A stretch of 64,000 bases of DNA from positions 32,001-96,000 of the IMG/VR virus record IMGVR_UViG_3300032038_000012; one strand, 5' to 3'. Within the stretch, counting starts at the first letter, position 1. The number at the start of each line of letters is the position of its first letter. The translations under genes were made by a program, and so were the position numbers. Under the pieces are notes generated by a model. The model ran no database searches. It saw only the letters and a program-made list of their open reading frames with translations, and was not told the origin of the DNA. This document shows positions 1 through 58,106 of the stretch, one piece after another. Source of the DNA: a virus (lineage: Duplodnaviria > Caudoviricetes).

Positions 1-456
1 GCATTAAAAGAAGATTGTTGGGGAAAATTCAGTAGTGATTTATGGTATGTTATGTTAGATTTAGATAATTTAGTAGAAGCAACATTAAATAATGATAAAT
101 ACCAATTATATTATAAATTATTAATTTATAAAATAGATGGAAAACAAAATGTAGAAATACAAGAGCTACTAGAAAAAGAATTTGGTATGACTCATTCTGT
201 AGAATATTTGTCGTCTTTATGACGTAATAAAATTCCTAAGATGATTGCGGAAACAGCTAAAGAACAATATTTAGAATGGCATTTTACATATAAAGAAAAA
301 GGGAAATGGAAAAAATGTACTAGATGTGGAAAAACTAAATTAGCTACAAATAGATTCTTTTCTAAGAATAGTACTTCTAAAGATGGATGGTATAGCATCT
401 GTAAACAATGTAGAAACGAAAAAAGTGCAGAAATGCGTAAAAATAAAACTAAGTAG
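1..456 (+). CDS. Partial (5'-truncated) protein with an HTH/sigma-region-4-like segment and C-terminal CxxC...CxxC zinc ribbon; in-frame TGA (Trp) at 220-222
   Basis: Frame 1 is open from base 1 except TGA at 220 (...VEYLSSL*RNKIPKMIAE...), continuous with the listed 241..456 ORF; CTRC and CKQC motifs; ends TAG. HTH call is by pattern only. Confidence 0.7.
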
Positions 457-470
457 AAGGAGGTGCGGAA

Positions 471-1655
471 ATGGCTAATAAATTATGTCAAAAATGTGGA
501 AAAATGCTTGATGAAGATACTCAATTTTATACTTATAAAGATGGTACTAAAACAGAAATGTGTAAAAAATGTCTTACTATGCACATTGACAATTTTGACG
601 AAAGTACTTACTTATGGTTGTTAGAAAAAATGGATGTACCTTATATTCCTGAAGAATGGAACGTATTAAGAGAAAGAGCTTATGCAAAAAATCCAAACTT
701 AAATGGAATGTCTGTATTTGGTAAATACTTATCTAAAATGAAATTAAAACAATATAAACAATATGGATGGGCAGATACAGAGAAGTTAAATGCTCTTAAT
801 GATGAAAGAAGAGCAGTACAAAAAGAAGAAAGAGAAAAATTTGAAGAAGAAATTAAAAAGCAATTTGAAGCAGGAGAAATTGGAGAAGCAGAATATAAAA
901 CTATGATAAGTGCGGAAACGCAGAATAAAGATTATATGTCGCGTCCAGTAGCTCCACCAGAGTTTCCACAAGATAAATATTTTAGTGAAAATAGTGAAAT
1001 AGTTCAAGAGCAAATGGATAGCTTAATTTCCGAATTAACACAAGAAGATAAAAAAGTATTAGCTATGAAATGGGGAGCTTTATACAGACCTGAAGAATGG
1101 ATTGAACTAGAAAAAGATTATAATAATATGATGAATTCATTCGATATTCAAGATGCTGATACAATTAATACTTTAATATTAATTTGTAAAACGAACCTTA
1201 AAATGAACCAAGCATTAGATGCAGGAGATATTGAAGGTTATCAAAAATTATCAAAAGTATCTGAATCTTTAAGAAAATCTGCTAAGTTTACAGCGGCGCA
1301 AAACAAAGAACAAAAAAATGATTATGTAGATTGTGTTGGTGAGTTGGTAACAATGTGTGAAAAAGATGGATTTATTCCTAGGTTTGAAACAGATATACCA
1401 CAAGACAAAGTAGATTTAACTTTAAAAGATATGGAGAATTATTTATATAAATTAGTTACTCAAGATTTAGGGTTTGGACAACAAATAGAAGACGCATTAA
1501 AGAAAATTCAAATTCAAAAAGAAATGAATGAAAATGTTGAAGATATATTAGAGGATGATGATCCTACTACTCTAATAGACCAAGACTATGAGGAATTTTA
1601 CAATAGCGTTAATGAGCAAAAAGAACAAGATAAAACACTTGGAGATGAAGAATAA
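471..1655 (+). CDS. Putative terminase small subunit with N-terminal Zn finger
   Basis: AAGGAGG RBS; CQKC/CKKC motifs; TAATG overlap with TerL; function inferred from position. Confidence 0.55.
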   Translation: MANKLCQKCGKMLDEDTQFYTYKDGTKTEMCKKCLTMHIDNFDESTYLWLLEKMDVPYIPEEWNVLRERAYAKNPNLNGMSVFGKYLSKMKLKQYKQYGWADTEKLNALNDERRAVQKEEREKFEEEIKKQFEAGEIGEAEYKTMISAETQNKDYMSRPVAPPEFPQDKYFSENSEIVQEQMDSLISELTQEDKKVLAMKWGALYRPEEWIELEKDYNNMMNSFDIQDADTINTLILICKTNLKMNQALDAGDIEGYQKLSKVSESLRKSAKFTAAQNKEQKNDYVDCVGELVTMCEKDGFIPRFETDIPQDKVDLTLKDMENYLYKLVTQDLGFGQQIEDALKKIQIQKEMNENVEDILEDDDPTTLIDQDYEEFYNSVNEQKEQDKTLGDEE

Positions 1656-3391
1656 TGGCATTAGCAGATTTAATGGAATTATCCTTAAATTCTAATACTA
1701 AAAAAGTAGGATTATCAGAAGAAAGAATAAAAGCACAAAAAGAACTTTTAAGAAAATATATAGCGTATTGGCGCGAATACCCTGATATGTTTGTAGACTT
1801 TTTATGCGGTAGTAACCCAGAAAATTTCCACCTATTCTTTTATCAAAGAATGTTTTTAAGAGCGGTAATGCGTCATAGATATGCCTATGCTACTTTCCCT
1901 CGTGCTTATTCTAAATCATTTTTATCAGTATTGGTATTAATGTTAAGGTGTGTTCTTTATCCTGGTTCACATTTATTCGTTACAACAGGTGGAAAAGAAC
2001 AAGCTGCGGGAATCGCTAGAGAGAAAGCAGAAGAAATCTGTAAATTAATTCCAGGAATGAGAAATGAAATTGACTGGTCAAGAGGTGCAACAAAAGCATC
2101 TAAAAATATGGTTGAATATATATTTAAAAATGGTAGTAAATTAGATATTATGGCCGCACAACAAAGTTCTCGTGGTAAACGTGCTACTGGGGGTCTAATG
2201 GAGGAATGTATCCTTATTGACCAAACATTATTAAACGAAGTTATAATTCCTACCATGAACGTAGACCGTCGTCTTTCGGATGGATCGAGACAAGAAGATG
2301 AAGTTATTAACAAAAGTCAAATTTATGTAACAACAGCTGGTTGGAAAAATTCATTTGCTTATGAAAAGTTAATACAAATCTTAATTCAACAAATTACAGA
2401 ACCTGGTCAAGCAATAGTCCTTGGAGGAACATGGCGAGTTCCTGTTATGGAAAAATTATTAAGAAAATCATTTATTGAAGAATTAAAACTAGATGGAACA
2501 TATAATGATGCCTCATTTGCGCGTGAATACGAATCTGAATGGAGTGGAGATGCGGAAAACGCTTTCTTCTCTGCAGAACGTTTTGATAAACATAGAGTTT
2601 TATTACAACCTGAATATGAATTTAGTGGAAGAAGTAGTAAAAGTGCATATTATATACTTGGTATAGACGTTGGTCGTAAGGGATGTACTACCGAAGTTTG
2701 CGTATTTAAGGTAACGCCGCAAGCACAAGGAACTTCCTTGAAGACTCTTGTTAATTTATATACTTGGGATGAAGAACATTTTGAAGCTCAAGCAATAAAT
2801 ATAAAAAGATTATATTATAAATATAAATGCCGTACTGCGGTTATCGATGCCAACGGTTTAGGTATAGGTCTTGTAGACTTCATGGTAAAAGATCAAATAG
2901 ACCCAGAAACAGGAGAATTATTACCAAACTTTGGTGTTGAAAATGATGATGAAGGCTTTTATAAAAAATTTAAAACTGCTGATACTGAACCTGATGCTAT
3001 GTATTTAATAAAAGCTAATGCGCCAATAAATACAGAAGCTCACACTTATGTTCAAACTCAATTATCTAGTGGAAAAATAAAATTCTTAATAGATGAAAAC
3101 CAAGCAAAAGTAAAATTAATGAGTACAAAGTTAGGACAAAATATGGATAATGATAAAAGAGCAGAATACTTAAAACCTTTTACTTTAACAACTATTTTAA
3201 GAGAGCAAATGTTAAATTTAGTTGAAGAAAATGAAGGTGTTAATATTATTTTAAAACAAGCATCAAGAAGTATTAAGAAGGATAAATTCTCTGCTTTTGA
3301 ATATGGTTTATACTATATCAAGCAGGATGAAGATAGAAAGAAAAAAAGGAAAAAAAGAAACATTGCAGATATGATGTTCTTCGGACACTAA
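1655..3391 (+). CDS. terL: Terminase large subunit
   Basis: Walker A-like PRAYSKS, Walker B-like RGKRATGGLMEE, F-REY-SEW, RNase H-fold GIDVG, IDANGLG, KDKFSA. Confidence 0.9.
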   Translation: MALADLMELSLNSNTKKVGLSEERIKAQKELLRKYIAYWREYPDMFVDFLCGSNPENFHLFFYQRMFLRAVMRHRYAYATFPRAYSKSFLSVLVLMLRCVLYPGSHLFVTTGGKEQAAGIAREKAEEICKLIPGMRNEIDWSRGATKASKNMVEYIFKNGSKLDIMAAQQSSRGKRATGGLMEECILIDQTLLNEVIIPTMNVDRRLSDGSRQEDEVINKSQIYVTTAGWKNSFAYEKLIQILIQQITEPGQAIVLGGTWRVPVMEKLLRKSFIEELKLDGTYNDASFAREYESEWSGDAENAFFSAERFDKHRVLLQPEYEFSGRSSKSAYYILGIDVGRKGCTTEVCVFKVTPQAQGTSLKTLVNLYTWDEEHFEAQAINIKRLYYKYKCRTAVIDANGLGIGLVDFMVKDQIDPETGELLPNFGVENDDEGFYKKFKTADTEPDAMYLIKANAPINTEAHTYVQTQLSSGKIKFLIDENQAKVKLMSTKLGQNMDNDKRAEYLKPFTLTTILREQMLNLVEENEGVNIILKQASRSIKKDKFSAFEYGLYYIKQDEDRKKKRKKRNIADMMFFGH

Positions 3392-3405
3392 AGTTGCTTC
3401 TTATT

Positions 3406-3452
3406 GGGCAACTTTAGCTTATCCAACCATGAAGAATTTAATATTATATTAG
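3406..3452 (+). promoter_or_regulatory. Bipartite late-promoter-like motif, copy 1
   Basis: GGGCAAC...TTTAATATTATATTAG with the same 46-nt spacing as other copies; overlaps perfect inverted repeat CTAAAGTTGC/GCAACTTTAG (3388-3417). Confidence 0.55.
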
Positions 3453-3512
3453 AAATATTTCGAGGAAATATTTTTTGGTATATCGTCATATCTTTATAGA
3501 GGAGGCGAAAAT

Positions 3513-3881
3513 ATGCGTGCAAGTCGTGGTGAAATAAAAATAGAAGAAATATTACAACAAGCAGGAATTCCTTTTCAAGAGGAGTATTCATTCCCTGATT
3601 TGCTAAGCTCAACTGGTCATCCACTAAGATTTGATTTTGCGGTATTCGATGATGAAGGAGAACTTGAATTCTTAATAGAATATCAAGGTATTCAACATTA
3701 TCAAGCAAAAAGTAAATTTGGTGGTTATACAGGTTTGCGCAAACAACAGCTAAATGATATGAGAAAGCGTGAATATTGTAGAAAACATAATATAATTCTT
3801 ATAGCAATACCTTATACAGACGAAGGTCGAATTACATATGATTATATTATGAATGCTTATTATGAACTGGGCGGTTACTAA
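3513..3881 (+). CDS. PD-(D/E)XK (Vsr/DUF559-like) endonuclease
   Basis: EYSFPDL..LRFDF..LIEYQGIQHY..D..KREYC..HNI.LI.IPY pattern; GAGGAGG RBS. Confidence 0.75.
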   Translation: MRASRGEIKIEEILQQAGIPFQEEYSFPDLLSSTGHPLRFDFAVFDDEGELEFLIEYQGIQHYQAKSKFGGYTGLRKQQLNDMRKREYCRKHNIILIAIPYTDEGRITYDYIMNAYYELGGY

Positions 3882-3886
3882 TAAAC

Positions 3887-3915
3887 TTGACAAGATTCAA
3901 TATTTATGATATACT
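3887..3915 (+). promoter_or_regulatory. SigA/sigma70-type promoter with extended -10, upstream of portal
   Basis: TTGACA-17 nt-TATACT with TG at -15/-14. Confidence 0.8.
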
Positions 3916-3950
3916 ATAAAAGAAAAAGGAAGAAAGGTAAGGTGTCGATT

Positions 3951-5561
3951 TTGATAAATAGAAAAGAAGAAATTAAGAAAAAAGGTTTCTCTATCGCTCT
4001 TGCGAGTGACACCAGAGCAACTCAAAGTCCTTTTGAAAACGTTGACTTTTCAAAAATTAAAGTTGGCGCAAAAACTTTAGACGATGCAATTTATACCTTA
4101 GGAGATCTAAAGAGAATAGATAAAACATTAGCAGATAAAAAAGAAATATTAAGAGCTATGCACACTTGTGATTATGCTAAATTAAGAGATGTATCAAATT
4201 TCTTTTATAAAACAAGTGGTATATATTCAAGACTTTGTCGTTATATGGCATACTTATACAGATACGATTGGATGGTTACCCCATATATAAATGCGGAAGA
4301 TGCAAAAACAGAAGATAAAGTATTGGATAAATTTTATGATGTATTATTATATCTTGATAATTTTGAAGTAAAAAAATTCTTTGGAGAAGTTGCTTTAAAG
4401 GTTATTAGATATGGATGTTATTATGGATATCTAATTCCTGGAGTAAAAAGAATGAATGTCCAAGAGCTACCTGCTAACTATTGTCGTTCTAGATTTATGG
4501 TTAATAATCGTCCAGCAATAGAATTTAATATGAAGTTTTTTGATGATTATTTTAGAGATACAACTCAAAAAATTAAAATGTTAAATTTATTCCCAAAAGA
4601 ATTTAAAAAAGGTTACATTATGTATAAAGAAGGTAAATTACCACCTCAATTCGCAGGAGATACAAGTGGTTGGTATTTACTTGATCCAGAATTTGCTTTT
4701 AAATTCAATATTAATGGGGAAGATTTTCCAGCCTTTATTTCTGTAATTCCAGCAATTATAGATTTAGATGAGGCAAAAGAATTAGACCGTAAAAAAATGG
4801 CTCAAGAATTATTAAAAATTATAATTCAAAAGATGCCATTAGATAAAAATGGCGACCTAGTGTTTGACGTTGATGAAGCCGCACAATTACATAATAATGC
4901 AGTTAATATGTTAAGTAAGGCTATTGGTGTAGATGTATTAACTACATTTGCAGATGTTGATGTTGAAGACATGGATAGCGATAGGTCTAGTGCGTCAAGA
5001 GACGATTTAGAGAGAGTTGAAAGAACTGTTTATAATGAAGCAGGTGTATCTCAAATGCAGTTTAATACTGATGGAAATATTGCTCTTGAAAAATCTATAT
5101 TAAATGATGAAGCATCTTTATATAATTTAATTACACAATTTGAGCAATTCTTAAATGTTATAATTGATAAATTTAACAAACAACCTAAGAAATTTTATTA
5201 CAGATGTCAAATATTAACAACAACTATTTATAATTATAAAGAAATGGCTAAATTATATAAAGAACAAATGCAAATAGGTTTCAGTAAAATGTTACCTCAA
5301 ATTGCATTAGGACAATCTCAAAGTTCTATCTTAGCAAATGCTTATTGGGAAAATGATGTCTTAGATTTAATTAACGTATTTATCCCACCATTAATGTCTA
5401 GTACAATGAATGCGGAAGCTCTTGCTATGACAGGAAATAAGGAGGCTAAAAAGGCTATAGGCGGAGAAGGAGAAAATCCTGAAGGCGGTAGACCTACTAA
5501 AGAGTCTCAAGGAGAGCCTGTTTCGGATAAAACTATCCAAAATAAAGAAAGTCAGAATTAG
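3951..5561 (+). CDS. Portal protein (probable TTG start at 3951)
   Basis: Size and position between TerL and protease/capsid; listed ATG at 3906 lies inside the promoter; AAGGTAAGGTG RBS precedes TTG 3951. Confidence 0.75.
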   Translation: MINRKEEIKKKGFSIALASDTRATQSPFENVDFSKIKVGAKTLDDAIYTLGDLKRIDKTLADKKEILRAMHTCDYAKLRDVSNFFYKTSGIYSRLCRYMAYLYRYDWMVTPYINAEDAKTEDKVLDKFYDVLLYLDNFEVKKFFGEVALKVIRYGCYYGYLIPGVKRMNVQELPANYCRSRFMVNNRPAIEFNMKFFDDYFRDTTQKIKMLNLFPKEFKKGYIMYKEGKLPPQFAGDTSGWYLLDPEFAFKFNINGEDFPAFISVIPAIIDLDEAKELDRKKMAQELLKIIIQKMPLDKNGDLVFDVDEAAQLHNNAVNMLSKAIGVDVLTTFADVDVEDMDSDRSSASRDDLERVERTVYNEAGVSQMQFNTDGNIALEKSILNDEASLYNLITQFEQFLNVIIDKFNKQPKKFYYRCQILTTTIYNYKEMAKLYKEQMQIGFSKMLPQIALGQSQSSILANAYWENDVLDLINVFIPPLMSSTMNAEALAMTGNKEAKKAIGGEGENPEGGRPTKESQGEPVSDKTIQNKESQN

Positions 5562-5567
5562 AAAATA

Positions 5568-5615
5568 GGACAAAAACTAATAATAAGAAACCACGTTATT
5601 TTATATTATTATAAG
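5568..5615 (+). promoter_or_regulatory. Bipartite late-promoter-like motif, copy 2
   Basis: GGACAAAA...TTTTATATTATTATAAG upstream of the head operon. Confidence 0.55.
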
Positions 5616-5649
5616 TGGAAGAAAATTATTAAGAAAGGAAAGATGATAT

Positions 5650-7092
5650 ATGATGCATCAATCAATTGCGACAATTGATTCTCCTGAGTTTATTAATTTA
5701 CAACCGCTAGAAATTAATCCGCTAATGAGTAGCTGTGAAATCAAGGTATTATATCTTGGTCAAAACAGAAATCATAGTTATATAACCAAAGACGTAGCTA
5801 CTGAGATGGCGAAGACTCTAAGAGGAGCTCCAATTGTTGGATACTACAAAGAAGAGAAAGAAGATTTTGCAGACCACGGTGAAAAAATCATCTTCGATGA
5901 TGAAGGTGTCAAATTTGAATGCATGACAAAACCTTATGGATTTGTCGCACCAGACGCAAAAGTTTGGTTCCAAAAATTTGAAGATACTGATGAGTTTGGT
6001 AACATAGTAACTAGAGAGTATTTAATGACTACTGGTTATTTATGGACAGGTCAATTTGAAGAAGTAAAATCTGTCATTGATAAAGGTAAACCTCAATCAA
6101 TGGAACTTGATGAAGAAACTTTAAATGGACATTGGTCAACTGATAGCAAATCAGGCATGGATTTTTTCATTATAAATGATGCGATATTTTCGAAATTATG
6201 TATTTTAGGTGACGATGTAGAACCTTGCTTCGAGGGCTCAAGCATTACCGCACCAGAAGTAAGTACTTCATTCACAAAAATAGATGATAATTTTAAGAAA
6301 ACATTGTACACTATGATGCAAGATCTAAAATTTGCATTAGAAGGAGGACAAAAGATGATTATAGATGAAGCTGAAACAAAAGTAACAGAACCTGAAGTTG
6401 TTGAAACTGAAGCTGAAGCTACTGCTGAAGAAACATCTACTGAAACTGAAATCGCTGAAGAAACTGAAGTTGTAACTGAAGAAGAATCTACTGTTGAAAC
6501 TGAAGAAAGTTTAGAAGATAAGGACACAGAAGATCAATCTGTTTTAGCAGAAAATGATAATTCTATAGAAGATCAATCTAGTCAAGAAAACTTTACTAAA
6601 GCAGATGACAAAGATGAAGACGACGAAGAAGAAGAATCTAAAGACGCAGATGCTGAAGATGAAGATTCTGAATCTGAGGATGATGAAGACGAAAAAGATA
6701 AGAAAAAATCTTATGCTTTATTAGAGTCTGAATTAGCAGAAACTAAAGCAGCTTACACAGATCTTGAACAAAAATATCAAGTTCTTGTTGAGTTTAAAAA
6801 ACAAATCGATGATGAAAAGAAAGATGCTTTAATCAATAGTTTCTATATGTTGTCTGACGAAGATAAGGCAGATGTTATCGAGAATAAATCAAATTATTCA
6901 TTAGATGAAATCGAATCTAAACTTTCTGTTATTTGCGTAAGAAAGAAAGTAAATTTTGATTTAGAGGACACTTCTAAAGAAGAAGAAGAAGTAGACAAAG
7001 ACGTTATGACTTACACAGTAAATGATAACGAAGGTAGTTCTACACCAGCGTGGATCGCTGCACTAAAGAATACTAGAGATAGTAGAAAATAA
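5650..7092 (+). CDS. Putative prohead protease/scaffold fusion
   Basis: Globular N-half (NRNHSYI, SMEL, LCILG..VEPCFEGS) then very acidic E/D-rich and coiled-coil C-half; lies between portal and capsid. Confidence 0.65.
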   Translation: MMHQSIATIDSPEFINLQPLEINPLMSSCEIKVLYLGQNRNHSYITKDVATEMAKTLRGAPIVGYYKEEKEDFADHGEKIIFDDEGVKFECMTKPYGFVAPDAKVWFQKFEDTDEFGNIVTREYLMTTGYLWTGQFEEVKSVIDKGKPQSMELDEETLNGHWSTDSKSGMDFFIINDAIFSKLCILGDDVEPCFEGSSITAPEVSTSFTKIDDNFKKTLYTMMQDLKFALEGGQKMIIDEAETKVTEPEVVETEAEATAEETSTETEIAEETEVVTEEESTVETEESLEDKDTEDQSVLAENDNSIEDQSSQENFTKADDKDEDDEEEESKDADAEDEDSESEDDEDEKDKKKSYALLESELAETKAAYTDLEQKYQVLVEFKKQIDDEKKDALINSFYMLSDEDKADVIENKSNYSLDEIESKLSVICVRKKVNFDLEDTSKEEEEVDKDVMTYTVNDNEGSSTPAWIAALKNTRDSRK

Positions 7093-7110
7093 TATTAAGG
7101 AGGAAAGACA

Positions 7111-7605
7111 ATGGCAAAAATTGAAAGAATTGGTTACGGACAAGTTGAACCAAATCATTTATCAGCTCAAAGAACTGCACAAATCTATGCTCAATTACCA
7201 TGTGAAGATAAAATTGAAGTATTAGAAAATGGTCAATTCGTAAAATATGACTATGCTAATAAAGAAGTTAACTTAACTGGTAAAGGTGAATGGATGTTAG
7301 TTTTCAATGAAATCAAATTATATGATGACAGAAAACAAATGTACAGAGACTTCGCAATGAAAAAAGAAGAATGCGTAAATGGTGAAATCGTACCAAGAGT
7401 ATTTAAAACTAATATAGGAGATATTTATACCACTAACATGGTTGATAGCACAAAAGAATATGAAGAAGGAGCTTTATTAAAAGTTAATGATGAAGGAATC
7501 TTAACTACAGGTGGAAGCTTAGATGACGACATGTGTTGGGAAGTTGCTATGGTTTATACTTTAGCAGATGGACAACCAGCTATCAAAATCATGAGGGTTA
7601 AATAA
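7111..7605 (+). CDS. Putative head decoration/cement protein
   Basis: Small gene directly before capsid gene; strong RBS; biased codon use. Confidence 0.5.
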   Translation: MAKIERIGYGQVEPNHLSAQRTAQIYAQLPCEDKIEVLENGQFVKYDYANKEVNLTGKGEWMLVFNEIKLYDDRKQMYRDFAMKKEECVNGEIVPRVFKTNIGDIYTTNMVDSTKEYEEGALLKVNDEGILTTGGSLDDDMCWEVAMVYTLADGQPAIKIMRVK

Positions 7606-7624
7606 TTGAGAGGAGGAAATAAGA

Positions 7625-8656
7625 ATGGCATTAAATAAAAGTGAATTAGTAAAATTAGCTAAAACAGTTGCTAGCGCAAATCCTACTTCTCAAGTTGCAT
7701 ATTCATTTGGAGAAGAAAAATTCAGTTATTCAGATTTAAATGAAACTTTAAGAACTGAATTAAGAGAATTAGCTGGTACATATAGCTTATATAGAGAAAA
7801 TAAAAACACAATCTTCAGTATAATTGAAGAAACAATCGATGATGTATTACCAAGAAAAGTTATGGAACAATACGCATCATTCGCTGAAATCAAAACTTAT
7901 GCTCAAGGTGACAAACCTGTTTTCACTCAAAGAATTACTGCAAGTGCTAAAAGAAGAGCTAAAAGATTTGTTACTAAAGTTGGTTTAGCAGGTATTTATG
8001 AAGTATTCAAATTAGATGGAAAAACATTAGAAGTACCTACTGAAGCATTCGGTGGAGCAGCTCAAATCGGATTTGAAGAATTCTTAGACGGTAGAGTTGA
8101 TTTCGCAGACGTATTAGACGTTATTATGGAAGGTTTAGATGAAGCTATCTACATCGAAATCGAAAAAGCATTAAAAGCAACAATTGATAGTTTACAAGAC
8201 ACTAACAAAGCATCTGAATCAGGATTCAATGAAACTGCAATGGATAACTTAATTGCTATCGCAGACTCATATGGAAAATCTACAATTTATTGTACTTATG
8301 AATTTGCTGCAACTATGGTTCCTGCAGAAGGATGGGTTTCTGATGATATGAGAAACCAAAAATGGAATAATGGATATTTAGCAAACTACAAAGGACATAA
8401 CGTAATCGTATTAGACCAATCATTCGTTGATGAAACTAACACTAAAAAAGTTATTGACCCATCTTATGCTTATATCATTCCAGTAGGAGCAGATAAACCT
8501 GTTAAAATTGCTTTTGAAGGAAATACTATTGTTGATGAATATGTTAACAAAGATCGTTCAAGAGAAGTTCAAGTTTATAAAAAATTAGGTGTTGCAACTT
8601 TAGTTACTAACAACATTTGTGTTTATGTTAATGAAGCTTTAACACCATCAATCTAA
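7625..8656 (+). CDS. Major capsid protein
   Basis: 343 aa, position, strongly biased codons (TTC/ATC/AAC), followed by terminator-like hairpin. Confidence 0.75.
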   Translation: MALNKSELVKLAKTVASANPTSQVAYSFGEEKFSYSDLNETLRTELRELAGTYSLYRENKNTIFSIIEETIDDVLPRKVMEQYASFAEIKTYAQGDKPVFTQRITASAKRRAKRFVTKVGLAGIYEVFKLDGKTLEVPTEAFGGAAQIGFEEFLDGRVDFADVLDVIMEGLDEAIYIEIEKALKATIDSLQDTNKASESGFNETAMDNLIAIADSYGKSTIYCTYEFAATMVPAEGWVSDDMRNQKWNNGYLANYKGHNVIVLDQSFVDETNTKKVIDPSYAYIIPVGADKPVKIAFEGNTIVDEYVNKDRSREVQVYKKLGVATLVTNNICVYVNEALTPSI

Positions 8657-8682
8657 TTTTAAATTAGGAAGATAGAAAATTA

Positions 8683-8743
8683 GGGAGAAGACTATGATAT
8701 ATAAGGAAGACTATATCAATTAAAAGTCTTCTCCCGTTTTTTT
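8683..8743 (+). terminator. Long-loop terminator/attenuator after capsid gene
   Basis: GGGAGAAGACT (8683-8693) / AGTCTTCTCCC (8725-8735) followed by T7. Confidence 0.7.
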
Positions 8744-8772
8744 AGTATATAGGAGAGAAAAGGAGAGAAAAT

Positions 8773-9345
8773 ATGTTAGAAGATAAAACTGTAATAACAG
8801 TATCAAACAGAGATAATGGAAGCGTTGGATATACAATCCCAGATTTAGGAAACTTACACAGAACTTTCCAACCTGGAGAAACAAAAGAAGTTACTATGGG
8901 AGAATTAAGAAAGCTATCTTATTTACCTGGCGGACTTAGCATATTAAAGAATTTATTAATTATAGATAATAAAGAAGCAGTAGAAGAATTAATAGGTGAA
9001 GTTGAACCTGAATATTATTATACTGAAGAAGATATTAAAAAATTAATTACTGAAGGTTCATTAGAACAATTTGAAGATTGTTTAGATTTTGCCCCAAGAG
9101 GAACAATTAATTTATTAAAGAAATTATCTGTTGAAATGAAATTAAATGATATGGCAAAGAGAAAAGCATTACTTGCGGCAACAGGATTTAATGTTACAAA
9201 CGCAATTAATGCAAATGAAGCTAGTGTAGAAGAAGACTCTGATGAGACTGAAACAAAATCAAAGAGAAGAGCTGCATCAATAAAAGATGACAGTGATACA
9301 AAAACTAGAAGAACTACTACAAGTAGATACAATGTAGTTAAATAA
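8773..9345 (+). CDS. Hypothetical head-completion region protein
   Basis: Intact ORF with AAGGAG RBS. Confidence 0.6.
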   Translation: MLEDKTVITVSNRDNGSVGYTIPDLGNLHRTFQPGETKEVTMGELRKLSYLPGGLSILKNLLIIDNKEAVEELIGEVEPEYYYTEEDIKKLITEGSLEQFEDCLDFAPRGTINLLKKLSVEMKLNDMAKRKALLAATGFNVTNAINANEASVEEDSDETETKSKRRAASIKDDSDTKTRRTTTSRYNVVK

Positions 9346-9365
9346 GAAAATTTTGGAGGTGTATT

Positions 9366-9926
9366 ATGGAAAGAACTACTACACCTTTTTCTATGATCTA
9401 CGATAGCTTTCTATCAAAAATAACTGATGATATGTATATGGAATTAAATGAATTAGATACATTCAGAATGTTACAAGAGCTATTAATAACAGCTACACAC
9501 AAATTTGAATTTCCACGTTTTGATATTACTGATTTTGAGGAAAGTTATGTAGAGGATGAAGGTACATATTGTGGAGTTGAGAGCGATGATTGCTGCGCTA
9601 AAGCACTTATTTATGGCGGCGGTTGCTTTAATAGTGTATTAACTCCAGAAGAAATAAATATCTTATCAACTTATATGATAGTAGAATGGTTAGGACAACA
9701 ATTAGCTAGTGTCGAAAACACTAGAATGAAATATAGTGGTTCTGATTTTAAATTTACTTCACAAGCTAATCACATGAGTAAGTTATTAAACTTAAAAAGT
9801 GATTATGAAAGAGAAGGATTTCATCTACAAAGATTATATAAGAGAAGATTAAAAGACGAAAATGGCATTATGCGTTCTACATTTGGATCTATTATGGAGG
9901 TTAGTACTCGTGATTTTATCGAATAA
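9366..9926 (+). CDS. Putative head-tail adaptor
   Basis: GGAGGTG RBS; position; helical protein with DFKFTSQANH motif. Confidence 0.5.
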   Translation: MERTTTPFSMIYDSFLSKITDDMYMELNELDTFRMLQELLITATHKFEFPRFDITDFEESYVEDEGTYCGVESDDCCAKALIYGGGCFNSVLTPEEINILSTYMIVEWLGQQLASVENTRMKYSGSDFKFTSQANHMSKLLNLKSDYEREGFHLQRLYKRRLKDENGIMRSTFGSIMEVSTRDFIE

Positions 9927-10230
9927 TATTGAAATAAAAAACGAAGCAATAGCCTATAATTTAAAAAGATTAACAAATCAAATATATAAGTTATTACCTA
10001 ATAGAGAAGAAAATATAGATTGGCAAACTCCATTAAGTACAATAGTAGAAGAGTTTGCGGGAATGAGTCGATTAATGCCAAAACAGCAAGAAAACATATT
10101 TCCGCTATTATGTAAACTCGAAGGTTTGCATAGTCTAACAGGAGAAGATGATTTCTTCCAATATAGAAGAACTATATTTGAATGTCTTAATCTAATACAA
10201 GTCTTAAAAGATAGTATAGAGGAGGAATAA
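9910..10230 (+). CDS. Hypothetical protein (probable GTG start 9910)
   Basis: GGAGG at 9896-9900 precedes in-frame GTG; listed start 9862 overlaps the upstream gene. Confidence 0.55.
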   Translation: MILSNNIEIKNEAIAYNLKRLTNQIYKLLPNREENIDWQTPLSTIVEEFAGMSRLMPKQQENIFPLLCKLEGLHSLTGEDDFFQYRRTIFECLNLIQVLKDSIEEE

Positions 10231-10233
10231 GAT

Positions 10234-11202
10234 ATGAGTTTGGAAACAATGAAAGAAAGAATTAATTATAACGGCGGAAAAGAACAAGAGTCTAGAATGA
10301 ACGCAGATAAACTACGTACATTAAAAAAGGCTCTTTTATATTCTTACCAAGCAGCAACCGCACGATTAACTGATGGTAGAGAATTTAGATGTTTAATAAA
10401 TCCTGATAAATTAAAGACAAATTATGATGAGAAAATCATTTCTATTCCATTTTTTGACATACAGCTTAATCCTGAGCTTAAGGAGAGTAAAAAATTTCAA
10501 AAAACTTCAAAAGGTGAAGAAGAAATTGGTATGAAGCCCGGAGATGTATTCACATGGAAAGAAACTAACACCGATTGGTTGGTATACTTAAGAAGATATG
10601 AAGAGACAGCTTATTTTAGGGCGGAAATCAGAAAATGTGATTACGAAATTGAGGTTAATGATAAAAAATATAAAGTATACATTGGCGGTCCAGATGAATC
10701 AGCTATTATTTGGAATAAAGTAAAAAAGATTGAATGGAATGATTTAAACTATTCTCTTACAATGTATATTACAAAAGATAAAAATACCGAAGAATTTTTC
10801 CATAGATTTACAAAGGTTGAAATAAATAAAAGACCTTGGGAAGTTCAAGCTGTTGACTCAATAAGTCAAGATGGTATTATTATAGTAGCCTTAAAAGAAA
10901 CTTATGAAAATAGTATTGAAAAGGCAGTTGAAAAAGAAAAAGTTGATACATATGTTGATTTAACTCAACCATATATAAAAGGACCTGAGACTGTTTACCC
11001 ATATGATGTAGTTACTTATTATATTAAGAATGCGGCAGATGGCGAATTTGTTGCTGAAGGTTCAGGTTTTGAAATTGCATCTCAAAATGCAGAACATATA
11101 AAATTGGGTATTGTTACTGGAAAAAGTGGTTCATTTACATTAAAGTATAAAATTCAAGACAAGGAAGATATTGTATTACCAATTACAATAGGTTCTTTAT
11201 AG
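10234..11202 (+). CDS. Putative head-closure/neck protein
   Basis: Position; beta-rich with KPGDVFTW..WLV motif; C-terminal Ig-like segment. Confidence 0.5.
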   Translation: MSLETMKERINYNGGKEQESRMNADKLRTLKKALLYSYQAATARLTDGREFRCLINPDKLKTNYDEKIISIPFFDIQLNPELKESKKFQKTSKGEEEIGMKPGDVFTWKETNTDWLVYLRRYEETAYFRAEIRKCDYEIEVNDKKYKVYIGGPDESAIIWNKVKKIEWNDLNYSLTMYITKDKNTEEFFHRFTKVEINKRPWEVQAVDSISQDGIIIVALKETYENSIEKAVEKEKVDTYVDLTQPYIKGPETVYPYDVVTYYIKNAADGEFVAEGSGFEIASQNAEHIKLGIVTGKSGSFTLKYKIQDKEDIVLPITIGSL

Positions 11203-11223
11203 AGATAAAAGGAGTGTATAAAA

Positions 11224-11808
11224 ATGAAAAGAGACGTATATACAAATAAATTTGATTCTTCATTTTTATCTTTTGAGAAAGACATAGAAACTATATTGAG
11301 AAAACTTTTTATAGAAAGTCATCCTTATAGTGATATATTAAAAAGATTATTAGTTATAAATACAAAAGATTGTTTAGATAATGAAGACAGTCCCGCAATA
11401 AAAGAAAAATTAAAAGATATGACATTAGCAAAATTAAGACAGGAAGGTTATATAAAGCTTGAACCAAAGATTGCTATGCCAGAACATGAAGAGGTAAAAA
11501 CATATATTATTATGTCTTGTGATAATTTCTCTTTAAATAAAACTAATAATCCTTATTATCGAGATTGTACTATTAATTTTGATATTATTTGCCATTTAGA
11601 CTATTGGGATTTAGGAAATTACAGAATAAGACCTCTTAAAATAGCTGGATATATAGATGGTATTTTAAATGAAGCCAAATTATCTGGAATAGGAACTTTT
11701 AATTTTTTAGGATGTAATGAACTAATATTAAATGAAGATTTAGGTGGATACACTTTATCTTATAGAGCAGTACATGGCAATGATGATAAACTTCCTAGAG
11801 ATGAATAA
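11224..11808 (+). CDS. Putative tail terminator/completion protein
   Basis: Position before major tail gene; I.FDIICH..W..RP..I...ID pattern. Confidence 0.5.
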   Translation: MKRDVYTNKFDSSFLSFEKDIETILRKLFIESHPYSDILKRLLVINTKDCLDNEDSPAIKEKLKDMTLAKLRQEGYIKLEPKIAMPEHEEVKTYIIMSCDNFSLNKTNNPYYRDCTINFDIICHLDYWDLGNYRIRPLKIAGYIDGILNEAKLSGIGTFNFLGCNELILNEDLGGYTLSYRAVHGNDDKLPRDE

Positions 11809-12554: not shown

Positions 12555-12589
12555 AAACTTTAGAAAAAATTAAAGGAGGATATGTTAAT

Positions 12590-13531: not shown

Positions 13532-13547
13532 TTTATGAAATATAAAC

Positions 13548-13576
13548 GAGGGAGGCTAAATGTCTCCCTCTTTTTT
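13548..13576 (+). terminator. Rho-independent terminator
   Basis: GAGGGAGGC-loop-GTCTCCCTC + T6. Confidence 0.8.
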
Positions 13577-13593
13577 GATATAATAGAAAGGAA

Positions 13594-14610: not shown

Positions 14611-14625
14611 AATTTTTGATATAAT
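14597..14625 (+). promoter_or_regulatory. SigA/sigma70 consensus promoter with extended -10
   Basis: TTGACA-17 nt-TATAAT with TG at -15/-14. Confidence 0.85.
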
Positions 14626-48996: not shown

Positions 48997-51249
48997 ATGT
49001 CAAAAACAATTAAATTTTATGAAGACGAATTAAAAACTAAACAAGTTTATCCTGAGATTGATCCTGAAGGAAAATATCCTGGGGTAACAGTTGGTTTAGC
49101 AGAGAACTTAACTTCTATAGATGGAGTTACTGATGGTTCATCATTCCAATATAGATCTGCTGCAAGTCATACAAGTGTGGCAACTGATGGATATGCAGTA
49201 TTAAAGAAATTACATGGAGCTAAATCAACAACTACAACAATTCCAGAAAGTATTAAATATAATTTATTAACTACTGGAGTAAAAAGTATTACATTAACTT
49301 TAGCAACTTTTAAAACTCAAAAAAGTGAAACTGGAGTTTATAATTTTATTTATACTCCAACAATTACATATACATCAAATTTAATAAGTTCAATTAATAA
49401 AGCTACATTTGCTAGAAAAATGAATGCTGCAACAGGAACTTTTGTATTTGAGTTTGATGCAGCTATTGATTATAATGATCCATCAACAATAGTATCAAAT
49501 TTTAATAAAAATACTTTTGCAAATAAAGTTTTAGGAACTGCAAATACATATGAATTTACATATGCAACAGATAATTGGTATTTAGGGACAGAACAAGTTT
49601 CTTTATCTCAATATGGATTTACTTTAAATTCAACAACACTTACAGAAGGAATGAAAATTACAGTTTATTATACTGCTAATAATTGAAAATATGGTCAAGA
49701 TGTAGTTGCATTATACCAATATGGAATTATTACAACAGGAAAAGAAAAACCTGGAAATACTATTACAATTAATTATACTGCAAATAATTGGATGTTAGAA
49801 GATGATATTGTTACATTATCAAGTTATGGTATTTCTATTACAAATGGAGCTGCCGCAATTAATGATAACATTCAAGTTATATATCAAGCTGAAGAGGTTG
49901 GAGTAGTTCAAATAGCAAATCCAACACATTTATTATCAATAGGAATGAATCAATTCAATAAAAGAGGTAGTCAAATTTTATCTAATAGTGGGATTGATGG
50001 TAATGGAGCTATAGGAACTGTTAATGACCATTATGTTATTTGGTTTAAGTGTTTAGGTGGACAAACTTATACTATTTATGATAAAAACGAAGGTAGTATA
50101 GTTCAAGCTGCATATAGTACTGAACCTATTGCAAGTTATTCAACAGGATTAACGATTTTAACACCTGTAACAACTTCATCAGAAGGAAATGAAGTAACAA
50201 CTACAACAACAAAAACTTATTATCAAACAACTAATAATGGTTATATGGCTATTGAAACTACTGATATTGAAGATTTATGTTGTCATTTAACCTGGTCTGG
50301 GACAGAAGATAATACTTATTCAGATTATTGAGAATTTAAATTAGAAATTCCATATGAAGATAAAAATGGAAATAAGATTTCTACATATGGATTACCTCAA
50401 TTAAATGATAATGTATTTGATGAAATTGATTTAGAAAATAATAAATATTATGTTAGAGTAGGAAGAGTTGAATATACTCCTACAAATTTATCTAATATTA
50501 GTGCTCAAACTTCTAATTATATATATGATAGTAATTGAATTTATTATAAGGCATCAAAAGAAAGAGTTTATGACTTAAAAGAAAGAGAAGATATATATCC
50601 TTGTGCGGACTTTGGTACAGAAGAATTTTTAAATAGTGTTTTAGAATTATCCCCTACAATAATTTATCAAAACAATTTAAAAGATAAATTAAGAAGAGAT
50701 GTTGAAGTTTTAGCTAATAAAACAAATGACTTATCAGATGTTTATGATTGAAATGCAACAACTATGTATCCAAGTGCAAAAGCTGTAAAAACAATAACTA
50801 ATAATATTTATGCAATGTTAGGTTTAGCTGTAAACACTTATGATAATAGTACTGTTTACTCTGCTGGGGACTATGTTGTATATGATAATATATTATATAA
50901 ATGCGTAACAAGCTCTAGTTCTGCAGGAGGCTTGACTAGAAAACCATCTGCAGTTATTTGGGATAGTTCTAATGAAGTATTCTCAATTACAGATGAAACT
51001 ACTTTACTTAATAGCGATCCTATTCAAGAACATGGTATAGGTGAGTATCAAATAAAATTACAAGCAGATTATCATGATCCAAATCATTCACATTATTTAC
51101 AAACACTAATATGTCCTGATGGGTATGTTTATGGACCGGAAGAAGGGCTTTTCTTGAATATGGGTATTCAAACCTTAACTAATACTGGTGAAGGAAGTTT
51201 TCAAATTACAGATGGACAATGGACTAGATCTTATTTATTTAAAGCTTAA
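48997..51249 (+). CDS. Tail structural protein (750 aa; TGA=Trp at 49684, 50329, 50536, 50749)
   Basis: One frame across three listed fragments; internal repeat YATDNWY / YTANN*K / YTANNWM; Y..GDYVVY...LYKC module. Confidence 0.8.
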
Positions 51250-51316: not shown

Positions 51317-52150
51317 ATGATTTTAAATATAAAACGATTTGCGCCAGAGTTAGATGAATATAATCCTGAATATAGTTATACCTATACTAAAAAAGGATAT
51401 GTTGCAACAGTAGAGGTTTCTATTGAATGTGATTATGATATTTCAAGTATAGAATTAAGTCGAGGAGAAACTTTATTAGGAGATTTAGTTGATGTAACTT
51501 CTGATTGAACTCTTTATAATGATGGGAGTTCCATTAAAAGAACTTTTACTGAACCTTGTCATGATACTTTTGTTATAAATTTTGAAAACGCTACTGTAAC
51601 TGGATATGTTATAGTAAATACATCTGATGACTTTACCCCAGAAAGTGAACAATATCCAGTAGAAATTAATGGAGATATTCGAATTAGTAATAGTGAAATT
51701 AAATTAAAAAAAGTTGCTGAAACGATTAAAGATTTAACGAATATTATTTATCCTGTTGGAAGTATATATAGAAGTACAAATGCGATAAATCCACAGAATA
51801 TTTTTGGCGGAACGTGAACACAAATTACAGATGATACAATTGTTGCTTATGCAGAAATGTCTGGAACAACTTTAAATCAATCAAAAAATATTTCTTCCAT
51901 TACTGGATCTAGTACTTTTATAGTAACTTTTTCTAAAACTATGGCAAATACAAAATACAAGGTTTTTGTATCTGGAGAATGTAGTGGATTAGGAGCTGAA
52001 ATTATAGGAGTTTATGGAAAAACAACAACAGGTTTTAAATTTGATTTTTGTAATTATAGTGGGACAGCAACAACTCCTACAAGTCAAAATATTTTAGTAA
52101 TAGGGCAACTTGCTAATCCTGAATATTACGAATGAAAAAGGACAGCATAG
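51317..52150 (+). CDS. Tail-collar/gp10-C-like protein 1 (277 aa; TGA=Trp at 51506, 51815, 52133)
   Basis: YPVGSIY...NP..IFGGT*TQI and C-terminal YE*KRTA match the FGGTW/WKR motifs of paralogues. Confidence 0.8.
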
Positions 52151-52161: not shown

Positions 52162-52605
52162 ATGATTATTAATACAGATTTAATTTATCCGATAGGAGCA
52201 ATTTATTTGTCAGTGTCACCTATAAATCCTAAAACTCTTTTTGGTGGAGATTGAGAAGCTATTTCTCAAGGAAGATTTTTACTTGGAGCTGGTTCTCCTG
52301 AAGCGAATACCGCAAATGATTTTGGAGATTTACAAAATTCAGGATATATTTTTCATGTTAATGATAGAGGCGGAGCTTATAAACATACTTTATTAACAAC
52401 TGAAATTCCTGCTCATAAACATCAAATAAAAACAAATAATGATGACTGGAATAATACTCAAAGTGGTGGTAACTATGGTACTACTAAGGACGGAACTACC
52501 GCTTGGTATAATAATAACTGGTATACAGAGAATACTGGTGGAGGTCAAGCACATAACAATATGCCGCCTTATACAGTAGTTTATATGTGAAAGAGGGTGG
52601 CTTAA
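52162..52605 (+). CDS. Tail-collar/gp10-C-like protein 2, absent from ORF track (147 aa; TGA=Trp at 52252, 52588)
   Basis: MIINTDLIYPIGAIY..NP..LFGGD*E...GRFLLGAG...HTL...EIPAHKH...TGGGQAHNNMPPYTVVYM*KRVA. Confidence 0.85.
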
Positions 52606-54227: not shown

Positions 54228-54674
54228 ATGAAAATTAATGTAGATTTTATTTATCCTATTGGATCTGTTTATATTAGTACTGAATCTATAAACCCTTCTG
54301 TTTTATTTGGAGGGGTTTGGAAACAGACTGCAAAAAGTAGAGCTATTGTAGGAGCAGGGGCAAATATAGCTAACACAAATACAACTTATGGTTCTTTATC
54401 TGCGGGAACGTTAAATTTTACAGCTGGCACCCTTATGGGAGAATCAACACATACACTATCTATTCAAGAAATACCATCACATTCTCATGATTTAACTGTA
54501 CATTCAGGAGGAACTACAGCAGCTCCTATAGGTGGAGTAGCAAATACCGCAAATGCTTCAGGCAGTGGTCTACTAACAGATGCTAGGTGAAAAATACAAA
54601 ATACTGGTGGAGGACAAGCTCATAATAATATAATGCCTATTGAAGTGTATTATATATGGAAGAGGGTGTCGTAG
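54228..54674 (+). CDS. Tail-collar/gp10-C-like protein 5 (148 aa; TGA=Trp at 54588)
   Basis: After TGA the frame gives NTGGGQAHNNIMP..VYYIWKRVS-TAG, completing the family C-terminus. Confidence 0.85.
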
Positions 54675-55397: not shown

Positions 55398-55910
55398 ATG
55401 GGACAACTATTAGCTAAATATACTATTACTGAAATTGTTGTATTTTTAGTTCTTTTAGGATTTGCTATTAAAGAGGTTGTTACTTTTTTTGACTGAGCTC
55501 ATAACAGACTTAGAAAAACTTTTAATAAAGAAGATGAACATGAAGAAATTAAAGAACAATTAGAAACAGTTGTAAATCGTTTAAATGATATTGAAACACA
55601 TTTTAACACAATGATAAACGAAAGTCGAGTAAAATATACTGAAATGCAACAATCAATAGATTTATTAATATCGTCAGACAAGGATGATATTAAAGCCTGG
55701 ATAACAGCGCAACATCATTTATTCGTTTATGAATATAAATGTATAGATGATTATAGTTTAGATTGTATTGAGAAAAGATATTCTCATTACAAAGATGAAG
55801 GCGGAAATAGTTTTATTGAATTATTAATGAGCGAAATCCGCGCATTGCCTAAAGTGTCTGTTCTACCAGAGCAGGAAGGAGTAGAGAAAAATGTTGAAGA
55901 TAAAAGATAA
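55398..55910 (+). CDS. Single-TM, coiled-coil holin-like membrane protein (170 aa; TGA=Trp at 55494)
   Basis: AAGGAG RBS, ATG 55398, hydrophobic IVVFLVLLGFAI, FFD*AH, then in frame with listed 55611 ORF ending Y..YK.EGGNS. Confidence 0.65.
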
Positions 55911-56374: not shown

Positions 56375-56421
56375 GGACTAATTAAAGCAATATAAATGAC
56401 TACTTTTTTATATATTTTTAG
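56375..56421 (+). promoter_or_regulatory. Bipartite late-promoter-like motif, copy 8
   Basis: GGACTAAT...TTTTTTATATATTTTTAG, 46-nt spacing. Confidence 0.6.
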
Positions 56422-56450
56422 AACAGAGAGAAAAAAGGAGTGTGAATTAA

Positions 56451-58106
56451 ATGGCAGCAACAAATGCTTTATATCCAGCATTAATAGAAACATATATGCC
56501 CGCTTTTTTAATTGACAGTGGAGACACAGAAAAAGATATTTGTAAAGTTTATTTTTCTATATCTCAATATAATAGTATTGGTGATATTGCTAATGCACAA
56601 GTTTCAGTAAGAAATCAAAATACTAATTTATCAGTATTAAATAAAGCACAATATCCTTGTGAAGTTATGGTAACTAATATTTATACAGATGAAACAGTTA
56701 CAACTGATTATAAATATTATGTAAAAATTAGAAAAACAGATATGGAAAATAATAACTTTAAAATAGATGAATATTATAAGGTACAAATTAGATTTACAGA
56801 TACTCAGGCTAGTCCTCTTCCTCAAGGAATGACACCTCCGCAAAAGATTGATAGCTGATTAGTTAGCAATTTAGATCATTTTTCAGAATGGTCAAGTGTT
56901 TGTTTAATTAGGGGCATTTCTAAACCAAGTTTAGACTTATTAGATTGGGATCCTGAAGAAACAAGAGATATAGATTGAAGTATTCAAAATACTCAAATAA
57001 ATGGTTCTTTAACTTTTACAGATGCTAATGAAAATGAAACATTAAAAAGTTATAGAATTAAACTATATGATAGTGAAGATAATTTATTAACTGATAGCGG
57101 AGATATTTTTACAAGTAATTATAACAATGTAAATACTATTAGTTATACTTTTAAATATAATTTTAAAGTAGATACTTCTTATTATTATACTTTTGAATAT
57201 ACAACTCAAAATCTTTATTCAGAGATTTTTACTTATAATTTTAGAATGATACAAGGAAATACTCAATCTTATAATTTACTTTTAACAGGGTATATCCGCC
57301 CTGAAGATGGAAATATAGATATTCAAGTTAGAAGAAGTACAGACCAAACCCCAGTATCAGGAAATATTGTTATTAGAAGAAGTTCTAGTAAAGAGAATTT
57401 TACAATATGGGAAGATATTCATACAGAAAGTATTTTAAATGTTCAAGAGGTAGATATTACATGGTCTGATTTTACTGTTGAAAGTGGAGTATGGTATAGT
57501 TATTGTGCTCAAGTTGTATTACCAGATGGAACAAGAGGTAAAATAACTGAAATTGCAAAACCTGTTATGATTGTTTTAGATGATATATTTCTAACAACCG
57601 CAGAAAGACAATTAAAAGTAAAATTCAATCCATCATTAAGTTCAATTAAAAGAAATATTAATGAAACAAGAACTGATACTATTGGTTCTCAATTCCCTTT
57701 CATAAAAAGAAATGGAGATATGAACTATGTTTCATTTCCTATTGGAGGACTTATATCTTCAGAGATGGATGAAAATAGAAAATTTACTTCTAAAACTGAA
57801 TTGTATGGAGATAATAGAAATTTCTATCAAGAGTATAATGAACAATATGAAATCAATAGACATTCAGATGTAGTATATGAAAGAGCTTTTAGAGAGGCGG
57901 TTATGGATTTCTTATACTCAGGAGAGGTTATGTTATTTAGATCTCCAACTGAAGGAAACTACTTAATTAGAATTATGGATTTAAGTTTCTCACCAGAAAC
58001 TACTTTAGGCAGACGTCTTTGGTCATTTAGCGGAACTGCTTATGAAATAGATTCTTGTTCTATTGACAATTATGATACTTATAAAATTATTGAAGGAAGA
58101 TACTAA
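56451..58106 (+). CDS. Distal tail/baseplate protein with Fn3-like segments (551 aa; TGA=Trp at 56856, 56976)
   Basis: Joins 56451..56858 and 57246..58106 in one frame; FSEWS motif; C-terminal DTIGSQFPF..RNG...Y..FPI, FRSPTEGN. Confidence 0.75.

Follow-up and report, generated by a model that had tools for sequence, protein, structure and literature searches.

In-frame TGA codons, probably read as tryptophan, in the late operon of a bovine gut phage that encodes a UCA tRNA

We analyzed a 64,000-nucleotide stretch of phage DNA (here referred to as the window) in which TGA, a stop codon under genetic code 11, lies in frame within genes for tail, baseplate, and fiber proteins. The window comprises bases 32001 to 96000 of an IMG/VR virus record (IMGVR_UViG_3300032038_000012) that is complete at 135,791 bp, carries direct repeats at its termini, and has a G+C content of ∼30%. 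We take it to be the late operon of a complete siphovirus from the bovine gut. Bovine gut is the main label of the sequencing runs, from 16 studies, that hold parts of the stretch, and RNA runs hold small shares of it. At least 253 relatives are present in IMG/VR, with portal proteins that are 65 to 80% identical among the 80 listed. The genes that carry TGA, together with two blocks that are free of it, are given in Table 1.

Table 1. Recoded genes and TGA-free blocks of the late operon, in window positions
Feature	Position	Strand	In-frame TGA	Remarks
370-aa gene, 3′ part	1..456 (genome 31344-32456)	+	220	directly 5′ of the packaging genes
Head block: large terminase, portal, YonB-like putative capsid, virion proteins, 2723-aa tape measure	471..23474	+	0 (vs 56 TGG)	stops are TAA/TAG
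1332-aa tail protein	23565..27563	+	27027	PHROG 3267 tail protein
1388-aa tail protein	27589..31755	+	30265, 30769, 30988, 31672	paralogue of 23565..27563
Lysis block: CHAP protein, two small genes, weak-Hint protein, GH25-CW_7-LysM endolysin	31755..36149	+	none	
119-aa gene	36277..36636	+	36541	
133-aa gene	36856..37257	+	36964	PHROG 21918 over residues 32-133, spanning the TGA at residue 37
698-aa tail fiber	38966..41062	+	40691, 40724	Pfam Phage_fiber_2
448-aa tail protein	41934..43280	+	43002 (Ser column), 43167 (Trp column)	
1095-aa SHAEG-repeat fiber	43295..46582	+	44339, 45416, 45437, 45827, 46307	PHROG 25468, YadA_head
750-aa tail protein	48997..51249	+	49684, 50329, 50536, 50749	CBM_5_12-like part
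277-aa gp10-like baseplate/tail protein	51317..52150	+	51506, 51815, 52133	Pfam Gp10_C
147-aa tail protein	52162..52605	+	52252, 52588	start is an ATG with a ribosome binding site
148-aa tail protein	54228..54674	+	54588	
170-aa protein	55398..55910	+	55494	hydrophobic N-terminal helix; possible holin-like membrane protein
551-aa virion protein	56451..58106	+	56856, 56976	

A six-frame scan of our own for open reading frames (ORFs), with only TAA and TAG counted as stops and genes of at least 100 amino acids (aa) retained, returned the same 30 in-frame TGA codons in the same 14 plus-strand genes as the original prediction, and every one of its coordinates reads TGA. Beyond the first TGA of the genes lie, in total, 3,262 codons that are free of TAA and TAG. 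Given ∼0.075 TAA or TAG per codon in the off-frames, the log10 probability of such open frames is about −110. The accompanying claims held as well: only TGA interrupts these genes, with no TAA, TAG, or frameshift among the interruptions, and all window genes of at least 100 aa end in TAA or TAG, so that suppression would not lengthen them. Reading through TGA does fuse code 11 fragments into full genes, joining 23565-27029 with 27117-27563 and combining four pieces into 27589-31755, and ORFs of at least 100 aa at 36277-36636, 36856-37257, 51317-52150, 52162-52605, and 55398-55910 are seen only under code 4, in which TGA is Trp.

Several candidate sites were rejected. Further TGA-bearing ORFs at 7568, 23475, and 46548 are N-terminal run-ons 5′ of a start codon with a strong GGAGG-type ribosome binding site, and an antisense ORF at 62113-62631 that overlies two minus-strand genes is an artifact; their omission from the original prediction was correct. 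The ATGA and GTGA sequences at 52133 and 52588 could be taken for stop-start overlaps, and this too was rejected, as the next genes begin at ATGs at 52162 and 52608, each with its own ribosome binding site. The five codons from these two TGAs encode WKRTA and WKRVA, each followed by the stop, and this C-terminal motif is common to paralogues, which have the forms WKRVA and WKRVS.

Coding density had been proposed as a check. The expected rise from code 11 to code 4 was found (0.837 to 0.893), but a control in which TAA was read as sense scored even higher (0.914), so coding density is a weak discriminator for this genome; in relatives, the same test gave a clear gain, from 0.69-0.79 to 0.86-0.90. 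Assembled contigs from further independent bovine gut studies (X2, X3, and X4) are letter-identical to the window over 43002/43167, 45416-45827, 50329/50536, 51815, 52252/52588, and 54588, counting only contigs with zero differences and not sites covered solely by differing contigs. Because contigs from independent studies are identical at these codons, the TGAs are not an assembly error.

Homology continues in frame beyond the TGAs. In the two giant tail proteins, 177 codons past 27027 align with the C terminus of the paralogue at 27589-31755, and the 27 C-terminal codons past 31672 align with the end of the other paralogue, yielding a read-through product that abuts the next gene at 31755. 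The alignment of the ends of the giant paralogues beyond 27027 and 31672 proves read-through at both, and both columns are variable. The match of the 147-aa protein to PHROG 24267 reaches the last residue only if 52588 is read through, and in the 148-aa protein, the match to the same family covers residues 5 to 147, to profile position 265/266, across the TGA at residue 121. Open codons also extend past the TGA of the 133-aa gene (96 codons) and of the 170-aa gene (137 codons).

To identify the amino acid, TGA was scored as X in alignments, so there was no pull toward W. Across this phage and five whole relatives from IMG/VR (G000 to G005), 207 of 396 TGA columns of the relatives (52%) stand opposite a W of this phage; the next most frequent residues are Y and F (21 each), and S (3.5%), G (2.5%), and C (1.3%) are rare. 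W occupies column 43167 in 104 of 108 homologues and column 56856 in all five relatives, and at column 220, two relatives have W and three have TGA. For the 750-aa gene, 14 orthologues from IMG/VR were read as DNA, 10 of which lack any TGA: column 49684 is W in 11 and TGA in 3, column 50536 is W in 12 and Y in 2, and column 50329 is W, F, or Y in 13, with N in the other, while column 50749 is variable. The TGA-free orthologues have TGG at 49684 and 50536. The closest orthologue of the SHAEG-repeat fiber has W at 46307, and one relative has W at 55494. Column 56976 is TGA in two relatives and D, S, or L in three. Tail fiber orthologues of the five whole relatives had for the most part diverged too far for alignment, and broader protein searches supplied the comparison for these genes.

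Paralogues within the genome give a further view of these codons, with W at the positions that correspond to 30265, 30769, 36541, 51506, 51815, 52252, 52588, and 54588 (in one paralogue for the last). For example, EY[TGA]YEI at 36541 faces TYWYEI or NYWYEI in paralogues at 47902-48273 and 55891-56244, with W in four relatives and TGA in one, and YTANN[TGA]K in the 750-aa gene faces YTANNWM in an internal repeat of that gene. All six motif comparisons quoted in the original prediction were reproduced, and the homologue alignment that it called for returned mostly W, except at 43002 (Ser) and 11 variable columns. On this comparison of sequences, in which relatives' TGA columns fall on W, TGA-free orthologues have TGG, and both homologues and paralogues have W, the reading of TGA as Trp is supported.

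Some observations weigh against this interpretation. The 11 variable columns among the 30 sites are uninformative as to the amino acid; in the SHAEG-repeat fiber, for instance, four TGAs fall at a variable repeat position at which Tyr ranks first or second among the residues. Code 4 may have been used to translate some database homologues. W occupies columns 40691 and 40724 of the 698-aa fiber in database proteins that are 82 to 84% identical, for which the codons behind the W were not seen, and because of the possible code 4 translation, these two columns are not independent evidence; three database entries of this fiber end at residue 575, the code 11 truncation point. The idea, considered below, that recoding gates late gene expression is weakened by the TGA-free endolysin and capsid genes. 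Finally, 43002 falls on a conserved Ser column (S in 106 of 120 homologues, R in 8, Y in 5, L in 1, and no W).

The codon at 43002 merits separate treatment. Strains that are 95 to 97% identical have S or L there within an otherwise identical stretch, which is compatible with a recent substitution of the codon's middle base (TCA or TTA to TGA), as judged from the proteins rather than the DNA of those strains. The X4 contig, from an independent run, is identical over both 43002 and 43167, which shows that this TGA did not arise as an error in a single assembly. The change would cost the protein its conserved last 92 residues under code 11 but would be a Ser-to-Trp substitution under the phage code. 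With a suppressor in place, nonsense-type mutations would thus become ordinary missense mutations, and TGA may arise from codons other than TGG.

The original prediction had proposed a search of the rest of the genome for a tRNA able to read such codons, and a tRNA(UCA) derived from tRNA-Trp was found at genome positions 8971-9066, i.e., 22,934 to 23,029 bases before the first base of the window, in a left arm that holds a plus-strand tRNA array (25 by ARAGORN) and a transfer-messenger RNA (tmRNA). The 96-nt tRNA(UCA) lies 4 bases 5′ of a tRNA-Trp(CCA), matches the Rfam tRNA model end to end (61.6 bits), and is also called by ARAGORN, whose label of “SeC” is due only to the anticodon and the long extra arm. 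It has a 7-bp acceptor stem and has in common with the adjoining tRNA-Trp the first five acceptor pairs (A1-U72, then G:C), G73, and the anticodon stem, except for the outermost 3′ base. The same tRNA(UCA) is present in three of the five relatives. The search for tryptophanyl-tRNA synthetase (TrpRS) or release factor genes in the rest of the genome, proposed alongside that for the tRNA, came up empty: there is no class Ic synthetase and no protein with an RF-1 domain in the complete phage genome. It would therefore fall to the host TrpRS to charge tRNA(UCA), and host RF2 would remain a competitor.

The extra arm of tRNA(UCA) stands at the position of the variable arm and consists of a 5-bp stem and a 7-nt loop, CUCCAAA, which is the exact anticodon loop of tRNA-Trp. 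Among 15 distinct sequences, a set chosen by loop sequence, both partners vary at three of the five stem pairs, and pairing is kept in 97% of cells. A second scan, in which only the UCA arm and the T arm were fixed, returned 95 Trp-like UCA tRNA loci in IMG/VR, comprising 49 whose arm has a UCCA loop, 28 with a long arm of another kind (many of them Sec- or Ser-like in appearance), and 18 with a plain variable loop. Records with the plain loop include 3 of 18 with a class Ic synthetase gene of TrpRS size, compared with 0 of 32 records with the UCCA arm (one-sided Fisher p ∼0.04, hand-computed and weak). Such a bias, weak as it is, would be predicted if a phage with the arm could do without a TrpRS of its own. 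We regard as close to an even call the proposal that the tRNA is “two-headed,” i.e., that the UCCA arm lets an unmodified host TrpRS charge a UGA-decoding tRNA, such that neither a phage TrpRS nor a release factor is needed. A literature search found no paper that describes a natural UCA tRNA with a second arm bearing a CCA anticodon loop.

In the mechanism that we propose, UGA would be a sense codon for Trp in the phage, read by the tRNA-Trp derivative with the anticodon UCA. Host TrpRS, with the second CCA-loop hairpin as its handle, would charge this tRNA, which would then compete with host RF2 at UGA, and recoding would delay or limit the synthesis of late proteins until the suppressor has accumulated. 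UGA is concentrated in low-copy genes for the distal tail, baseplate, and fibers, together with the gene that precedes the terminase and one that encodes a small membrane protein.

The distribution of TGA bears on the regulatory part of this proposal. TGA and TGG number 29 and 136 in the distal tail block, compared with 1 and 62 in the head, packaging, and tape measure block (a count that takes in the upstream 370-aa gene, with TGA 220 and six TGG) and 6 and 124 in the minus-strand replication block (Fisher p = 7e-4 and 5e-4). About 1 in 8 Trp codons of the late operon is TGA; genome-wide, in genes of at least 150 aa, the share is 11%, compared with 28 to 44% in the five relatives, and within a lineage in which TGA recoding is heavy, this phage shows the least of it. 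In the large terminase (TerL) of G002, which is 90% identical, four of six Trp codons are TGA where this phage has TGG, and TerL, portal, and tape measure genes of the relatives carry TGA at TGG columns of this phage, as in a near-synonymous exchange of the two codons. TGA is absent from the endolysin, from almost all of the replication block, and from the putative capsid, which, like a 313-aa virion protein, is TGA-free across all six genomes. The replication block opens, just past the end of the window, with two small genes that do have in-frame TGAs (98430-98918 on the plus strand with three and 98954-99400 on the minus strand with two, in genome coordinates). Several of the columns concerned are W or TGA in relatives, and homology goes on past the TGAs, so the late operon is not quite the sole site of recoding.

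This distribution is compatible with a temporal partition and no less so with TGA being avoided where late genes are expressed most strongly. The second possibility underlies an alternative that rivals only the regulatory part of our explanation, in which TGA is Trp but there is no timing switch, and TGA drifts into low-copy, fast-evolving tail and fiber genes that tolerate inefficient decoding and is purged from highly expressed genes. We consider it possible, if somewhat short of an even chance. The constant absence of TGA from the putative capsid and the 313-aa virion protein, set beside the free gain and loss of TGA in TerL, portal, tape measure, and fiber genes, is what drift would predict, as is the de novo Ser-to-TGA change at 43002. 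The endolysin and CHAP protein are TGA-free, and the former speaks against a simple lysis gate in this phage. Furthermore, across the six genomes, which are related and hence not independent, sense TGA is followed by T in 15% and by C in 6% of cases, compared with 25% and 11% after TGG (pooled chi-square p = 3e-10). The lower frequency of T fits avoidance of strong termination contexts under drift; more broadly, the scarcity of T and C may reflect avoidance of strong RF2 contexts or differing neighbor residues. Against drift, almost no TGA occurs anywhere in the replication block of any relative, which is compatible with a temporal partition too, and Borges et al. (bioRxiv 10.1101/2021.08.26.457843) find enrichment of recoding in lysis-linked genes.

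A different possibility is that the host itself uses code 4, as do Mycoplasma and Spiroplasma, in which case the phage would merely follow its host without a code switch. The low G+C content of the genome would suit such a host, and some of the closest lysin homologues are in metagenome-assembled genomes (MAGs) labeled “Tenericutes” or uncultured Bacilli. Yet an AT-rich code 4 genome would be expected to use TGA predominantly everywhere, and here it accounts for few Trp codons, with hardly any in the replication and head genes. The phage also brings its own tRNA(UCA) and encodes peptidoglycan hydrolases (CHAP and GH25) with LysM and CW_7 wall-binding modules. The nearest bacterial homologues of these lysins are on MAG contigs of gut Bacilli, Erysipelotrichaceae, and Clostridia; these contigs have a high coding density under code 11 and genes that stop at TGA. 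They point only broadly to the host, since they could be prophages or mis-binned phages. In addition, a left-arm gene of the phage (genome 13552-14037) has its sole TGA at codon 149, where the orthologues end (147 to 149 aa); TGA may be a true stop in this presumably early gene. Given the low TGA share, the lysins, the code 11 candidate contigs, and the apparent TGA stop in the left arm, a code 4 host is very unlikely. Most likely, the host is a walled, standard-code member of the Bacillota.

We hold to be highly improbable that TGA encodes another amino acid, such as selenocysteine, glycine (code 25), serine, or cysteine. The SeC label, the long extra arm (which suggests serine), and the Ser at column 43002 would point that way, yet W is by far the commonest residue opposite the TGAs of relatives, the tRNA matches the general tRNA model with a Trp-like acceptor stem, G73, and anticodon stem, and the loop of its extra arm is that of the Trp anticodon. 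Selenocysteine insertion in particular was rejected on the 7-bp, Trp-like acceptor stem and on the proportion of Cys relative to Trp among aligned residues. Least tenable of all is the notion that the TGAs are real stops or errors in 14 split, decaying, or mis-assembled genes that yield truncated proteins only, which could appeal to code 11 fragments held as separate public proteins and to the fresh nonsense-type look of 43002 but is contradicted by the long open frames, in-frame homology past interruptions that are exclusively TGA, identical contigs in independent studies, and relatives with three to four times more TGA codons, at Trp columns.

Taken together, we consider it highly probable that UGA is a sense codon for Trp in the late operon of this bovine gut phage, decoded with a phage tRNA(UCA) in a standard-code Bacillota host, with TGA placed mainly in low-copy distal tail genes.

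Other features of the genome are recorded here in their own right. The 370-aa gene at the left edge of the window matches PHROG 5767 (“sigma factor”; E 1.4e-31) and has additional matches of the HNH or zinc finger kind. The putative capsid gene is at 7625-8653 and owes its YonB label to an Atlas feature match only; its protein had no match in a PDB profile search or in Pfam, and an AlphaFold model built from a five-sequence alignment was unusable (mean pLDDT confidence score, 44.7). Within the lysis block, CHAP, Glyco_hydro_25, CW_7, and LysM domains score above Pfam cutoffs, and a 340-aa protein (window 33956-34978) has weak Hint, PT-HINT, and intein-splicing matches, below Pfam cutoffs, in its C-terminal third. 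G+C content is 0.33 to 0.35 at window positions 32001-48000, compared with 0.29 to 0.31 in most other parts of the window, which fits mosaic exchange of lysis and fiber modules. An Rfam search of window positions 28500-33500 returned no match.

The left arm holds further RNA features. The tmRNA at genome positions 987-1411 matches the whole of the Rfam model RF00023 (72.7 bits), its tag as called by ARAGORN ends in CVAFA, and relatives G002, G004, and G005 have tmRNA genes of a similar kind; speculatively, such a tmRNA might rescue ribosomes that run past host TGA stops once the suppressor is active. Both terminal repeats contain an 89-nt tRNA-like match (Rfam tRNA, 45.6 bits; genome 23-111 and 135687-135775) that ARAGORN does not call. 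In the tRNA region, a 337-nt stretch (genome 5822-6158) matches OLE RNA (RF01071) at 109 bits, compared with a gathering score of 50. OLE RNA is an RNA of Bacillota, and a copy in a phage would be unusual and a hint at the host phylum.

Public protein collections hold tail and fiber genes of this lineage as code 11 fragments, among them P0220 (348 aa; 43295-44341), P0221 (331 aa; 44423-45418), and P0373 (575 aa; 38966-40693). Without code 4, annotation, host range prediction, and mining for receptor-binding proteins therefore go wrong for a lineage of abundant rumen phages that is mis-annotated in databases. The TGG/TGA differences among close relatives form a natural series for how a stop codon is captured and which genes accept it first, and the same series bears on recoding as a timing device versus tolerated drift.

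The TGA-to-Trp assignment itself has precedents in bacteria. In the code 4 of Mycoplasmatales and Entomoplasmatales, UGA is the main Trp codon genome-wide, a tRNA-Trp(UCA) is present, and RF2 has been lost. The assignment is the same here; the difference is that TGA is limited to some of the genes and to a minority of Trp codons and that the change is brought by the virus.

Among phages, as the original prediction had stated, stop recoding is already known from the gut, and this phage is a clear but ordinary example of TGA-to-Trp recoding. Borges et al. (bioRxiv 10.1101/2021.08.26.457843) described the TGA-recoded “Agate” phages of animal guts, of ∼127 kb. Compared by description only, in which size, habitat, code, and gene partition agree, the likeness extends to TGA as Trp, a genome in the range of 127 to 154 kb, cattle gut among the sources, and a phage tRNA(UCA). 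In both, TGA occurs in structural and tail genes and rarely serves as a stop, replication genes keep to the standard code, the degree of recoding varies widely between close relatives, and a tail protein just 5′ of the lysis cassette is recoded. In contrast, the phage studied here is lightly recoded and has a TGA-free endolysin, and a second anticodon-like arm on the suppressor tRNA is not described by Borges et al.

The closest named complete phage in GenBank is phAss-1 (Babkin et al. 2023, PMC10607447; GenBank accession no. OQ749652; proposed genus Phassvirus), with 38% identity in the portal and 50% in the putative capsid. It is likewise a gut phage, of 135,976 bp, with a large tRNA set, suppressor tRNAs, and no cognate synthetase, but in 41 of its ORFs, TerL and portal among them, TAG is reassigned to Gln, whereas here TGA is read as Trp and neither TerL nor portal is recoded. 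Placement in Phassvirus was considered and rejected, as the portal identity at the protein level is far too low for the same genus and TAG is a stop here.

What may be new is the second head of the suppressor tRNA, located outside the window. Its nearest counterpart is artificial: Mukai 2020 (PMC7590224) engineered a pseudo-anticodon arm into the variable arm that aids charging by a modified HisRS. In both cases, a hairpin that copies the cognate anticodon arm sits at the variable-arm position of a suppressor tRNA and would recruit the anticodon-binding domain of the synthetase. The engineered system depends on HisRS fused to an extra anticodon-binding domain, whereas the phage has a natural tRNA for Trp, which the host TrpRS would need to accept with no change to the enzyme; if true, this would be a simple natural solution to the code engineering problem of charging a tRNA with an altered anticodon.

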